From Octopus vulgaris (lineage: Eukaryota): a DNA stretch of 64,000 nucleotides. Below are positions 5,711 through 62,785 of the stretch, piece after piece. The position numbers were made by a program, and so were the translations under genes. Under the pieces are notes generated by a model. It saw nothing but the letters and a program-made list of their open reading frames with translations. It made no database searches and had not been told where the DNA came from. Location: contig OX597834.1 of NCBI GenBank assembly GCA_951406725.2, positions 27,528,001 through 27,592,000 of the forward strand, in the 5' to 3' direction. Each line of letters starts with the position of its first letter. Positions within the stretch are counted from its first letter, which is position 1.

Positions 5711-5925
5711 TAATCCAAACAAGAAAGCACAAAAAAAAACACAACAACGCGAGGACGTGGGACAAATATAGTATTATTGGACGCTCAGGAAAGAAGGAAA
5801 GAAGGAGGGTGTAACGTTTCGAGCGGAGCTCTTCGTCGGAAACATAGGAGAAGGAAAGATCCAGATAAGGGAAGACAGAGGAAAAAAAAATCGCCAACAG
5901 TTCACACGATGTCACATTTTGATAT
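5706..5925 (-). mobile_element. Family F hammerhead-motif repeat
   Basis: Inverted copy of 2580-2790; motif at 5813-5839; same GGATTAACTT-(TA)n junction. Confidence 0.7.
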
Positions 5926-22798: not shown

Positions 22799-24072
22799 TA
22801 GGGTCGTCCGATAAATAATGCGGGTTTTTATACTTTTATTTTTTTTAAATTAAGATAAATGAAGTTCTTTTTTAATCTAAATTATTCGCTCCTTCATTTT
22901 CTACAATGTTCTTCCATCTATAGACCTGCAAGGCCCCTCTCCCAAAATCTACTTGTCCGTGACGAAAAATACTCCTCCAGTAAATTCTGACATTGTCTAC
23001 AGAATTCATATTTTTTTACGTCCAAATGATTTTATAGGCTGCGGAATAAATGATAATTAGATGGGACAATGTCCGACATACATGGTGGGTGAGGTATCGT
23101 TGCCTATTCAAGCTGTTCCAGCTTTTATAATGTCATCTTCGCTGTATTAGGTCCGAGCATTATCCTGATGGTAAAACACCTTTCGTCTTGGAACCAAAGA
23201 TGGTCGTTTTTCTTGTAGTGTTCACTTAAAGCCGCCCAAGCTGCTCACAGTGGATCTCCTTTGTTATTGTTTGGTTTGGGTTTAAAAGTTCAAATTGGAC
23301 TAAACTTTTCATATCCCATCAAACAGATAACAACACTTTACGTGGGTGAAGAATTTCTCTATCCTGGGATGCCCTTTCCCTCCCCACTGTCTTCGGGGGT
23401 TGACATTTTTATAGAGAACACATTTCTCGTCACCAGTCACTATTCGGTCCCCGGAAAAGGTTCATTCATGAGACGTGACAGCAAAGAAGAGAACACATTC
23501 ACTCTCTGCTCGTGATTAGACTTGGAACATTTGTGAGGAACTCATTGACCCAATTTTCTGGTTTTACCGATGGCACACAGGTTTCGATGAATGATTGAAT
23601 GACCAAATCCAAGCTTCTCTGCTAGTTCCTCAACAGTTATCATGGGACTTTGTTCCACTAGGGTTTGCAGGGCGTCCTCGTCGAGATCTACAGATCTTCC
23701 AGAATGAGGTTCGTATTCCAGGCTGAATTTTCCGGCTCGAAATTTCAAGAATCACCGTTGACATTGGCTTACGCTTATTGTCCGATCCCCATATATTGCA
23801 TTAATATTCCTCGCACTTTCCGTTGCGTTTTTGCCTTTTTTAACTCTTAAAGCAAAATATGTCGAATACGCTCCTTTGTCACTTCCATTATAGCTTCGAA
23901 AGAATAACTGTTGAGATCGAAATACACACTTCAGACCTTGTACTAAGAATAGAGAACAAGGTAAAATTACAACCTGCTTTTATAGCAAGTTGATACAGAT
24001 AGTTTATCCCGTTCCCCTCCATGTTTAACTTCATGGAATTGAAAAAAAAAACGCATTATTTATGGGATGACC

Positions 24073-29287: not shown

Positions 29288-29890
29288 ACTTAGATAACTT
29301 AGATATGTTTCGACCAAAGATTGGTCCAGGCCATGTCTAACTTAATAGCACCACCTGATAGGATTATTTGAATCCTGTTTAAGTCAAGTTTTGTTAATGG
29401 TCCATTCAAGTAGTGAGTTTTTGTTGGGTGAGTTGTATCCAATTATGGGTGGCTTATCTGGTATTCCTTGAAGGAATCTATCCAGACTCCGTTTAAAGTT
29501 GATGGGATCCTTTTCCTCTTTGATCTCTTTCGGGACAATGTTAAATAGGGCAGGGCCTGTTGAGGAAAAGAAATTATGTTGCAGTGTACATGTATGCTGT
29601 GATCTTGAATTGGGCAGGGGGCGTATGGCCCGTGGTCCCAGTCTTGGATGAACCTTGAAGCTAATGTTCAGGTCGTTTGGGCAAAGTTTGCGGTATATTC
29701 TCCACATCGTACAAATGATGTACCGCTCACGGCGACGCTGGAGAGAGTAGAGTTTCAAGGCTTTAACACGATCCCAATAATCGAGAGCAGCCATGCCTTC
29801 AATTCGTTTAGTGAGTGCCCTCTGGGGTGATTCAATCCTCGAGATGTTTTGTCTTGTATGGGGAGACCACAGTGGGCAGCAGTGTAGTCA
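29288..29890 (-). pseudogene. CR1-group LINE 3' end (ORF2 C-terminus, 3' UTR, short-repeat tail)
   Basis: DYTAAHCG/WSP region then LDYWDRVKALKLYSLQRRRERY...FKRSLDRFL; (TATCTAAGT)2 tail. Confidence 0.88.
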
Positions 29891-31482: not shown

Positions 31483-31527
<45 letters not shown>

Positions 31528-31630
31528 TAAATGAAAGAATGGAGTCGAACGAAGATGTTAAAATTTCTTTACTCTCGACACTGAAGGAATTTTCCATGCT
31601 GACGATAAACATAGGATAATTCATTCACCT

Positions 31631-31814
<184 letters not shown>

Positions 31815-33958: not shown

Positions 33959-34449
33959 TTAATAGAGATCATAAAGTGACAAAGGGTACTGACTATAAAC
34001 CGCTTTTGCTAAAGATAAGAGTTAAACTAACTCAAGGCCATAAATGCACTGTCTTAAGTGACTGACAAAGGGAGGTAAATATCCAGCATATATAACCGGA
34101 TCGCGATTTCGGATTTTGATGTTGACCATCTTAAGCCTCATCAACGACTCTTAACACCTAGAGTTAAACCCAACTACCTTTGTCAGTCTTATAAGAAAAA
34201 GCGTTGAAAACTTGTGCTGATTTCCAAAACGATAAAAGTGAAAACTACAAATTAAAAAGATTGGCTTATCAGCAATTAAAACCTAAAGGGAAAATCCGAA
34301 ATCGTGATCCAGCTATGTACACTGGAGACTTATCTCCCTTTGTCAGTCACTTAAGACAGTGCATTTGTGGCTTTGAGTTAGTTTAACTCTTATCTTTAGC
34401 AAAAGCAGTGCTAGTCAGTACCCTCTGTCACTTTTGTAACCTCTATTAA
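33959..34449. mobile_element. Fold-back element with ~160-bp inverted arms
   Basis: 33959-34117 is the imperfect reverse complement of 34291-34449; both ends are TTAA. Confidence 0.85.
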
Positions 34450-34520
34450 TTTTACCTTTGGTTCTAACTGCTAAATCATCCTTCTTCATTTTTTAAACAC
34501 ATATATATATGAAAAAGGGT

Positions 34521-34857
34521 AAAGAACCCCTTCGGTCATGAATGACCATGGGATTGCACCTAGAAAGTTACCCTCCTAGACACAAGTCCGGGCAAGGTTG
34601 TTTATGGAAGACCAGCAGTCGCCCATGCATACCAGCCTCCCCTCTCCATGCCACCAGTGTTATCCAAGGGAAAGACAAAGGCCGATACAGCTTGGCACCT
34701 GTGACGTCGCAACTCATTTCTACAGTTGAGGGAACTGGAGCAACGTGAAATAAAGTGCCTTGCTCAAGAACACAACACGCAGCCCGGTCCGGGATTCGAG
34801 CTCACAACCTCACGATCGTAAGCTCGACGCTCTAACCACTGAGCCATGCGCCTTCAC
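34521..34857 (-). mobile_element. SINE family D (tRNA-Arg-like head)
   Basis: Minus strand GTGAAGGCGCATGGCTCAGTGGTTAGAGCG...TTACGAT...GCTCGAATCCC then GTGTTGTGTTCTTGAGCAAGGCACTTT. Confidence 0.88.
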
Positions 34858-35131
34858 TCTTATATATATATACACACACACACACATAGAGTGGATGAGA
34901 GAGATAGACGAATATATATAAATATATATATATATATATTTAAGTAGATGAATGAATTATCCTAGTATGGATAATTCTGTTAATCGATACCTGGGTAGCA
35001 AATTCACTTCAGTAAAACACGGTTGAAGTTACATGCCAAGTGCTGAACCCCGTGTTCGTGTGTGGAAATTTGTGTGTTTTTTTTATATGAATAAATGAAA
35101 AGTATGGAGTCGAACGAAGATTTTATCAAAA

Positions 35132-35230
35132 TTCCTTTGCTTTCGACATATGTTTCGAAGACTGCATATTCTTAATTCCGAAGGAATGAAGGTTGCATTA
35201 TGCCGTCTTCTCATCAGGAAATACAAGGAA
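35132..35230 (-). ncRNA. Type I hammerhead ribozyme, canonical core
   Basis: TTTC-CTGATGA-GAAGAC.GCATA..TATGC.GTCTTC-GAAA-CATATG-TC-GAAA; GUC triplet; stem I extends TTCCTT/AAGGAA. Confidence 0.85.
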
Positions 35231-35319
35231 CCTCTATCAGCCTCAAGACGAACAAAAGCTTCTTACCGTCTGCCTACATGGTTTCCATATATATATATAT
35301 ATGTACATATATATATATG

Positions 35320-36436
35320 TCAATCGTTTCAAATTACATTTGTTTACTTTCGTATGTCCACTCTACTGTTTCGTTTGCTTGAACCCTAATTCTCCGCAAA
35401 TTTTGCGGGTTTCGCCGATATGTCAAATTCTCAGTTTTTATCGTTAAAGACATGAAACTGTGTATTAGCATCTCGGTCGATAACTGATGAAGAATCAAGG
35501 TCCTTCTGTGTCTTATGTGGCCGTTTTGTAGTATTTCATGCATTTTTCATTTATTGAGTAACTGAAGGCCCCGCATCCCGACTTTTGCTAATAGTAAATT
35601 TTTTATAGATTTTTTGCGATTCTATCTTCTTTCATTCTCTCTCATTCTCATACTCCTTTTCTAGCATCCCAGCTTCTTCTCTCGCGTCTTCTCACTTCCC
35701 CTATTCTTTCTCCCCCTCTCTCATCCTCCTTTCCCCTTCTATTTACTGCCCACACTCTCTGCCTTTCGCCACCGAACGCTTAGCTTGCCGGTCAATATTT
35801 ATCACCACTCTTGCTATTTCTCTTTCTGTATCCATTCAGGATTTCTTCCAGGCGTTACCTATCATTCTCGTCTGTTTGGCCGAAAGCCCCTATTCATTCC
35901 GTCTTCGTAAATCGTTTTAAATTACATTTGTTTACTTTCGCTCATCCACTCAGTATTGTTTTCTTTGCCCGAGTTCTAATTCTCCGGAAATTTTGCAAGT
36001 GCCGCCGATATGCGAAGTTCTTAGTCTTCTAGTTAAAGACATGAAAGGTAGGAGAGTTCAGTTTGCTGGACATTGTTGTAGAGCTGAAAAAGAAGTAATT
36101 TCTACTCTTCTCCTCTGGAAGCCATCTACTCGCAATACCAGAGGGCGCACACTCTCCTACCCTGATGTAATCTCCAGGGATACAGGCATCCAGCAACAGG
36201 ACCTCTGAATTGCCATGATGGACCGTGAAGTCTGGCGTAGCATGGTAAATTCCATTGTCTCGACCACGGTCGAACAATGATGATGAAAGACATGAAACTG
36301 TGTATTAGTATTTCGGTCGATAACTGATGAAGAATTAGGGTTCTTCTGTATCTGTCCTACGTGTAAGTTTTTAAGTGTTCAAAGCATTTTTCAATTATTG
36401 ATAGTAACTCAGTGTCACGCATCGCGACTTTTGTTA
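35320..36436 (+). repeat. Direct duplication of a ~275-bp unit (35320-35595 and 35908-36436)
   Basis: AATCGTTT.AAATTACATTTGTTTACTTTCG...GCATC.CGACTTTTG.TAA in both copies. Confidence 0.85.
36047..36285 (+). mobile_element. 5'-truncated RTE-like LINE with (TGA)n tail and 12-bp TSD
   Basis: RRVQFAGHCCRAEKEVISTLLLWKP...MMDREVWR; TSD AAAGACATGAAA at 36035-36046 and 36286-36297. Confidence 0.92.
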
Positions 36437-36464
36437 ACATATACATATGTATGTATGTATGTAT

Positions 36465-40243: not shown

Positions 40244-40484
40244 ATAAATTCAGGGTGAATACTTGATAATTGTAAGCACCTGTAGGATTCAGCGGTACAT
40301 AAGTTTCGGGCTTTTTTTAGACGGATTGCTAACAATGCATAATGTGTGTCTATGGCGAGTGAGAGACGAGATGGACGCTTCGTTTTTGTGCTGGTGCCCC
40401 ACCCTGTCGTACGCGACTGTGAAGATTTGCACCCCCAACGTAAAACTTATAATGTAATACATGTCCTTGAAGTAGTAATTGTAC

Positions 40485-40562
40485 GCGGCTGAAGAAGGCC
40501 ATAGTCACACATTATGCATTGTTATAAATCCGTCTAATAAAGGCCCGAAACATATGTACCGC
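40485..40562 (+). ncRNA. Minimal type I hammerhead ribozyme candidate
   Basis: GCGG-CTGAAGA-aGGCC...GGCCc-GAAA-CATATG-TA-CCGC; inverted partial copy at 40284-40356. Confidence 0.75.
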
Positions 40563-50699: not shown

Positions 50700-51063
50700 A
50701 CTTAGATAAACTTAGATATGTTTCGACCAAAGATTGGTCCAGACCATGTCTAACTTAATTGCACCACCTGATAGGATTATTCGAATCCTGTTTAAGTCAA
50801 GTTTTGTTCAAGTAGTGAGTTCTTGTTGGGTGAGTTGTATCCAATTATGGGTGGCTTATCTGGTATTCTTTGAAGGAATCTATCCAGACTCTGTTTAAAG
50901 TTGATGGGATCCTTTTCCTCTTTGATCTCCCTCGGGGCAATGTTAAATAGGGCAGGGCCTGTTGAGGAAAAGAAATTATGTTGCAGTGTACATGTATGTT
51001 GTGATCTTGAATTTGGCAGGGGACGTATAGCCCGTGGTCCAAGTCTTGGATGAACCTTGAAGC

Positions 51064-62757: not shown

Positions 62758-62785
62758 GACGTTTCGGCCCTCTAGCCTTCATCAG
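62758..62785 (-). ncRNA. Minimal hammerhead core (stem I not evident)
   Basis: CTGATGA-A-GGCT-agag-GGCC-GAAA-CGTC. Confidence 0.5.

Follow-up and report, generated by a model that had tools for sequence, protein, structure and literature searches.

Type I hammerheads are known from the pseudo-LTRs of animal Penelope-like elements (PLEs), reportedly also a subject of 2017 work by Lunse, Weinberg and Breaker.

The PLE hammerheads in the available text of Cervera and de la Pena 2014 (PMC4209133) have a long helix II and a palindromic helix III, need to dimerize and have low activity. As far as that text and the accessible part of a review (PMC6765202) describe them, they do not cut as monomers and are weak as dimers, and molluscan minimal hammerheads are already included in the 2014 supplement. 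Craig 2021 (PMC8557442) describes PLE copies as 5'-truncated or inverted, with (TA)n as the target and a tail at one of the two ends. For the Poseidon element of Anolis, Frangieh 2024 (PMC11167929) reports that copying starts at either of two internal sites, that the template is uncut and that the ribozyme is assisted by protein. The Anolis hammerhead needed the element's own protein, was dispensable for insertion in vitro and gave no RNA-seq reads ending at the cut, and the open frame of the element starts near the core AUG (same paper). A 2026 preprint (10.64898/2026.07.22.740005) makes the case that the retrozymes of animals arose from PLE ends and are often solo monomers; its available text makes no mention of octopus or molluscs. 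Octopus vulgaris carries 31 recently active Penelope-like families according to an extract of PMC13282606, and 235 matches to Rfam Hammerhead_1 were counted in the giant squid genome (PMC6962438, in extract). Literature searches returned no paper analyzing such motifs in octopus; one paper gives the giant squid count. Dimer-type hammerheads at PLE ends are already published for many animals, molluscs included, and the motif described here adds one family.

The window, a stretch of 64,000 nucleotides of O. vulgaris DNA (contig OX597834.1, positions 27,528,001 to 27,592,000), is AT-rich animal DNA with many TA, CA and other simple repeats as well as dispersed repeats. Its minus strand contains at 35132-35230 a real type I hammerhead with all core residues, referred to below as the 35-kb motif or copy. 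The parts of the motif are as follows, in window coordinates:

35218-35230, minus strand, stem I 5' strand, with six distal pairs, an internal loop and four proximal pairs
35211-35217, minus strand, core CUGAUGA (C3-A9), followed by zero extra nucleotides before G10.1
35157-35210, minus strand, stem II and its loop, with six pairs, a G.A mismatch, five pairs and a 30-nt loop containing a further hairpin
35153-35156, minus strand, core GAAA (G12-A15.1)
35147-35152, minus strand, CAUAUG, which with its neighbours makes the 8-nt palindrome ACAUAUGU
35146-35153, minus strand, palindrome ACAUAUGU, helix III, with two pairs in the monomer and eight intermolecular pairs in the dimer
35144-35147, minus strand, GUC triplet (35147-35145) and predicted cut (35145/35144)
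35132-35144, minus strand, stem I 3' strand

The sequence CUGANGA, GAAA, an NUH triplet and the pair G10.1-C11.1 are all present, and helices I, II and III are arranged around the core with the open end at helix I, as in type I hammerheads. Stem II is formed by 35210-35199 with 35157-35168, interrupted by the G.A mismatch at 35204/35163 and closed by G10.1-C11.1, and its pairs have probabilities of 0.87-1.0 in the predicted fold. Stem I consists in order of four pairs, a 3x3 internal loop and six pairs, and helix III is predicted to be stable between two molecules only. The original prediction had announced a minus-strand hammerhead with an intact core, composed of CUGAUGA, an 11-bp stem II with one mismatch and a G-C closing pair, together with GAAA, the palindromic CAUAUG, GUC, a cut at 35145/35144 and an internal loop in stem I. 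Every one of these features is present in the sequence.

A strict descriptor matched only once in the whole window, at the 35132-35230 motif. The same descriptor gave three matches with stems II and I of at least four pairs in 200 dinucleotide-shuffled windows, and a stem II of at least six pairs was reached in 0 of the 200. With a relaxed descriptor, the score of the 35-kb motif was reached in one of 300 shuffles, and six hammerhead-like motifs were detected in the window versus 0.28 expected. The plain fold z-score of the motif is modest (-1.97, with 8 of 200 shuffles equally good). Rfam identified no hammerhead or ribozyme family, either in the whole window at the gathering threshold or in 34500-36000 at E up to 10; descriptor-type matches with a long stem II need not match an Rfam model. 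The motif resembles the giant squid matches, as far as the extract of PMC6962438 describes them, in being a type I hammerhead in a cephalopod genome, and differs from them in being missed by Rfam. Two pattern scans each for relatives in viral contigs (0 and 0 matches, with the gap of the first scan too short for the stem II of the motif) and in metagenome contigs (0 and 0) returned none. Prokaryote genomes gave 10 matches of an 18-mer against approximately 17 expected by chance from the size of the collection, and were dropped.

Like the PLE pseudo-LTR hammerheads in the available text of PMC4209133, the 35-kb motif is of type I with G10.1-C11.1, a long helix II, a short proximal helix I and a small helix III that is palindromic (15.2-16.2 plus loop 3) and dependent on dimerization. 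The setting is also similar, with mostly solo copies of truncated elements, nearby inverted pairs and many families per genome. Its predicted mode of action is that of the dimer-type hammerheads in PLE pseudo-LTRs and amphibian retrozymes. Unlike the PLE minimal hammerhead of that text, the 35-kb motif has no extra nucleotide between A9 and G10.1 and so falls short of the textbook form; five other motifs in the window carry the extra base after A9. Further differences from the hammerheads described there are a longer helix II (11 pairs and a 30-nt hairpin loop), a 6-pair distal stem I and the lack of a linked PLE open frame, the 35-kb motif being known from a shortened copy.

The motif belongs to a high-copy repeat. 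All or part of the stretch was found in 20 of the 24 runs listed, which come from 10 studies under four organism labels and are represented by contigs throughout; five of these 20 contain at least half of its words. Four of the 24 runs, compared with the 341-bp stretch at 80% likeness, yielded 1705, 377, 178 and 156 contigs. Summed depth over the hammerhead in run X1 is mostly 150,000-310,000, with single contigs at 28-115, and points to thousands of copies; summed depth is not a copy number.

Variation within the family was assessed from 40 of 62 variant rows, unphased and drawn from four runs. Among the rows listed, 16 variants fall inside 35132-35230, at 15 positions. None of these affects any of the 14 fixed positions of the core, a pattern that is weak by itself (P = 0.08), and one is at the free position N7. 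Eleven of the listed variants are at paired positions, where seven keep or create a pair, two match the variant of the partner and two break a pair. The partner variants change A-U to G-C at 35206/35161; unphased as they are, their frequencies agree in runs X9 and X13 and not in X1 and X17. The sole palindrome variant among the rows listed leaves the dimer duplex intact by way of G-U pairs. Family variation thus appears mostly to keep the fold. Loose ends behind 35162 and before 35175 indicate subfamilies that have another loop II and a common proximal stem II, core and stem I.

The 35-kb copy itself deviates from the family at six positions between 35100 and 35232, or approximately 4.5% (35103, 35126, 35139, 35188, 35193 and 35222), where an own substitution is one at which at least 93% of the depth differs in at least three of the four runs. 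At 35222 the copy has A, while about 96% of the family depth has C or U, which would give a fifth proximal stem I pair with G35140 that is absent here. Because of these six substitutions the copy appears to be aged, and the differences may also be strain differences or assembly errors.

The hammerhead lies within a larger element, the parts of which, together with the second copy in the window, are as follows:

35287-35318, no strand, (AT)n tract on the 5' side, a likely target
35231-35286, minus strand, upstream remainder of the element, 5'-shortened at a TA tract, while other copies continue beyond about 35261
35084-35131, minus strand, downstream part, ending at the first 3' end (about 35086), as marked by the 31.5-kb copy and by loose ends before 35084 and 35099
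34941-35085, minus strand, extension to the second 3' end, about 145 nt, structured (z -3.1) and more decayed in the 35-kb copy
34911-34939, no strand, (AT)n tract on the 3' side, a likely target
31524-31634, minus strand, second copy (31.5-kb copy), between perfect (TA)n tracts, with the catalytic core lost

The fragment at 34941-35286, approximately 345 bp, sits between the two AT tracts. Loose ends behind 35261 and 35257 indicate that other copies extend upstream, and since these continue past about 35261, the 35-kb copy is shortened at its 5' side. Near 35086, the first 3' end, other copies terminate in TA-like repeats; the second 3' end, near 34941-34960, is found in both window copies and by loose ends before 34967. 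The hammerhead is near the 3' end, and its cut precedes the first end by about 60 nt and the second by about 205 nt. Insertion in TA microsatellites was observed for both window copies (2/2) and by loose ends, in which copies terminate in TA-like repeats at both ends, and the point is weakened by how common TA tracts are in the window. Among the four joints listed, none is head-to-tail and two, both in run X1, are inversions with the joined parts on opposite strands, from 35012 to 35198 and from 35197 to 35261.

Both window copies carry the extension, which likely belongs to the same element as the hammerhead. It may also be a second, separate element with the same target, because its summed depth exceeds that of the hammerhead part (up to 800,000 in X1) and none of the contigs listed has 31 letters on both sides of 35086.

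Just upstream in other copies (35262-35283, minus strand, from loose ends), a near-duplicate of the stem II 3' strand is followed by a second palindrome. The loose-end letters there include a complement of the core, which could be what is left of a second hammerhead half, or else a strand that does the masking. Close to the second 3' end, the family has CUGACGA and then UAAACAUAG in a hairpin (31599-31622, plus strand), resembling a hammerhead without stem II. The 35-kb copy is without those 12 bases, and the combination of CUGACGA with UAAACAUAG is possibly a relic or a product of chance.

The second copy was described in the original prediction as a related sequence at 31523-31580 that keeps the downstream part and loses homology just past the cleavage site. 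The copy is real and does keep the downstream part; its homology in fact extends past the scissile bond by four bases on the 5' side. It is composed of the inverted end of the extension (31591-31634), a 10-nt junction and a retained part (31524-31580) that begins with those four bases and finishes at the first 3' end, and 31520-31580 is 86% identical to 35084-35148 over 65 columns. The proposal that genomic copies start at the cut finds no support: this copy is an inversion that retains sequence on the 5' side of the cut, and the summed contig depth has no step there in any of four runs. Depth in X1 is equally high upstream (35149-35220) and downstream (35101-35136), and in the other three runs it peaks across the cut. 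No common start or end is listed among the contigs, which are poor at showing these. The 31.5-kb copy retains the GUC triplet and the base preceding it, and the letters of its junction are similar to hammerhead sequence from further upstream, so it was likely copied from an uncut template.

Predicted folds indicate that cutting would depend on a second molecule. Helix III of the monomer, with two pairs around four bases, has a predicted probability of 0.013-0.016, and the active monomer fold is predicted to lie 2.3 kcal/mol above the minimum. The eight-pair duplex of ACAUAUGU has a predicted energy of -7.0 kcal/mol. For two 99-mers, the unconstrained minimum-energy fold is a double hammerhead at -53.6 versus 2 x -23.1 kcal/mol, with stem I swapped, both stems II formed, an 8-pair helix III and the cores unpaired. 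Because helix III hardly forms in the monomer and the dimer folds into the active shape, the motif is predicted to be a dimer-type ribozyme that would cut only when two molecules pair. The natural flanks are predicted to disrupt stem I, the pairing of which falls from 0.87 in the 99-mer to 0.12 with the 5' end moved to 35283, to 0.05 with the 3' end moved to 35086 and to 0.03 or less in three longer stretches; the upstream 35231-35286 is predicted to pair with the stem I 5' strand and the core. The earlier statement that the motif is predicted to self-cleave is partly supported: the core is intact, but only the dimer is predicted to take the active shape, with a helix III probability of about 0.015 in the monomer and natural flanks that are predicted to reduce stem I pairing. 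The accompanying advice that a dimer be tested was apt. As a dimer, the trimmed 99-nt RNA may well cleave slowly, while a natural transcript of the 35-kb copy would probably undergo little cleavage. Contigs over the motif are present in two runs guessed to be RNA, including one that covers the cut and 31 letters to either side of it; they may be DNA, and contigs do not reveal RNA ends.

What is directly observed comprises the motif itself, its membership of a repeat, the TA tracts on either side, the pair of 3' ends, the inverted junctions and variation that mostly keeps the fold. In our judgment these are probably explained by an aged copy, shortened at its 5' side, of a repeat present in many copies, which carries an intact type I hammerhead. 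The repeat is likely a PLE pseudo-LTR or a non-coding derivative of one, and the hammerhead is predicted to be active only as a dimer through ACAUAUGU. We favor a PLE origin because the published signature of PLEs combines truncation at the 5' side with inversion, a tail at one end and insertion at TA. Truncation or inversion was found in the 31.5-kb copy, in two of the four listed joints and at the loose ends behind 35261. According to the available text of PMC8557442 and PMC11167929, PLE insertions share 5' truncation, inversions, (TA)n, two 3' ends past the hammerhead and copies of uncut RNA with this family. They differ in the tail, which is 30-40 nt in the review text, whereas the two ends here are about 145 nt apart with a putative membership of the extension. 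No Pfam match to a reverse transcriptase or GIY-YIG domain was obtained in 300 of the 402 open frames of the window, the copy being 5'-shortened. Coding by the open frame of 43 codons with its AUG in the core is unsupported, no longer relative having been found.

Transcripts of a master element, arranged in tandem or as pairs, would bring two palindromes together in the 8-pair helix III, and the double hammerhead so formed would cut after GUC and trim the RNA of the element. The endonuclease and reverse transcriptase of the element would then nick TA repeats and copy the RNA, starting from either of two internal sites and mostly on uncut RNA. The outcome would be shortened and inverted copies such as the two in the window, of which the 35-kb copy is likely a neutral relic.

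A different origin, as a solo monomer of a non-LTR retrozyme in which a tandem unit is cut into monomers, circularized and re-inserted, is unlikely. Non-LTR retrozymes (PMC7229834 and 10.64898/2026.07.22.740005, both in part) have type I hammerheads, low GC and a length of a few hundred bases, and the fragment here is about 345 bp, with contigs in two runs guessed to be RNA. The lack of an extra nucleotide and the extended stem I with an internal loop would also fit, as would a helix III of one or two pairs with a palindromic loop, found in the axolotl HHR_Amex1, and weak palindromic helices III are a property of amphibian retrozyme repeats (PMC7229834, available text). Mussel retrozymes lack the classic loop contacts (same text), and solo monomers are common among retrozymes derived from PLE ends in the accessible part of the bioRxiv preprint 10.64898/2026.07.22.740005. 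The family departs from those descriptions in its lack of a tandem unit in the window or contigs (a monomer could exceed the stretch compared), its helix II of 11 pairs rather than 4 and its inverted junctions, and it does so further in that 0 of 4 listed joints are head-to-tail versus two inversions and that copies have fixed end points within TA repeats. No tandem having been observed, we do not assign retrozyme status. As retrozymes are argued to derive from PLE ends, the retrozyme and PLE readings both lead back to PLEs.

Quite improbable, in our view, is a PLE-derived cephalopod family in which a retrozyme-like hammerhead has its core masked by an upstream complement until a partner RNA or the protein of the element opens it, with an unusually long tail of about 145 nt in addition, so that thousands of copies could cut host transcripts pairwise. 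The hammerhead in this reading would be the one with no extra nucleotide, an extended stem I and an 11-pair stem II. Loose ends of two runs have letters complementary to GAUGA about 45 nt upstream, and the flank of the 35-kb copy is likewise predicted to mask the core. The end of a hammerhead-bearing SINE-like element (cf. the Schistosoma Sm-alpha repeats) that has lost its Pol III head is very unlikely: the repeat is of high copy number, non-coding and dispersed, and SINE-like repeats are abundant in the window, but the inverted junctions and the two 3' ends are characteristic of PLEs, the window yielded no tRNA gene and the 30-letter loose ends show no head. We give hardly any credence to a host-kept ribozyme that cuts a host transcript, despite a core wholly intact amid six nearby substitutions, as at about 4.5% divergence 14 core bases survive by chance approximately half of the time. 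Furthermore, the 35-kb copy differs from the rest of the family in one stem I pair, its flanks are predicted to disrupt stem I and no host gene was identified in the window by Pfam in 300 of 402 open frames, which gave only a helix-turn-helix remnant and low-complexity matches. A chance match has a negligible probability and is already refuted by the shuffles (0/200 and 1/300 reaching the motif) and by the pairs kept across family variation, notwithstanding the missing Rfam match and a fold z of just -1.97.

Placement in a probable PLE-like element, a setting that the original prediction did not give, makes the motif ordinary. The sequence family is new within the literature searched, its kind is well described and the copy is decayed. 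The family is of modest use: with its many copies, natural variation and strong 8-pair dimer helix, it lends itself to the question of whether PLE hammerheads cut in vivo, and for what purpose. The only points that might raise its significance are two candidate features, the long extension and the possible upstream masking of the core.

Several other elements and hammerhead-like motifs are present in the window. The CAUAUG palindrome recurs, together with a long loop II, in a second hammerhead family, which comprises 40489-40557 (plus strand) and 40284-40356 (minus strand). The pair is inverted and 85% alike, the forward copy terminates in a TA tract and stem II is damaged. Four more hammerhead-like motifs of other families are found at 62785 (minus), 46322 (minus), 31013 (plus) and 22109 (minus), the last with decayed relatives at about 5814-5921 and 2620-2753. 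Directly upstream of the 35-kb copy lies another repeat in two copies about 80% alike, 35319-35591 and 35907-36437, with a plus-strand CUGAUGA and an inverted 12-mer around it; the second of these copies is split by an insert of about 230 bp (36046-36286) bordered by a 12-bp direct repeat. A MITE-like element with a 158-bp inverted repeat (87%; 33960-34117 and 34291-34448) lies close to the second 3' end. A remnant of a mariner (Mos1-type) transposase helix-turn-helix is located at 23755-23979 on the minus strand (Pfam HTH_48, E 4.8e-08). LINE-like open-frame remnants at 29306-29887 and 50719-51063 are 93% alike over 356 bp, and the LINE remnant has 135 protein relatives, including one from a mantis shrimp.
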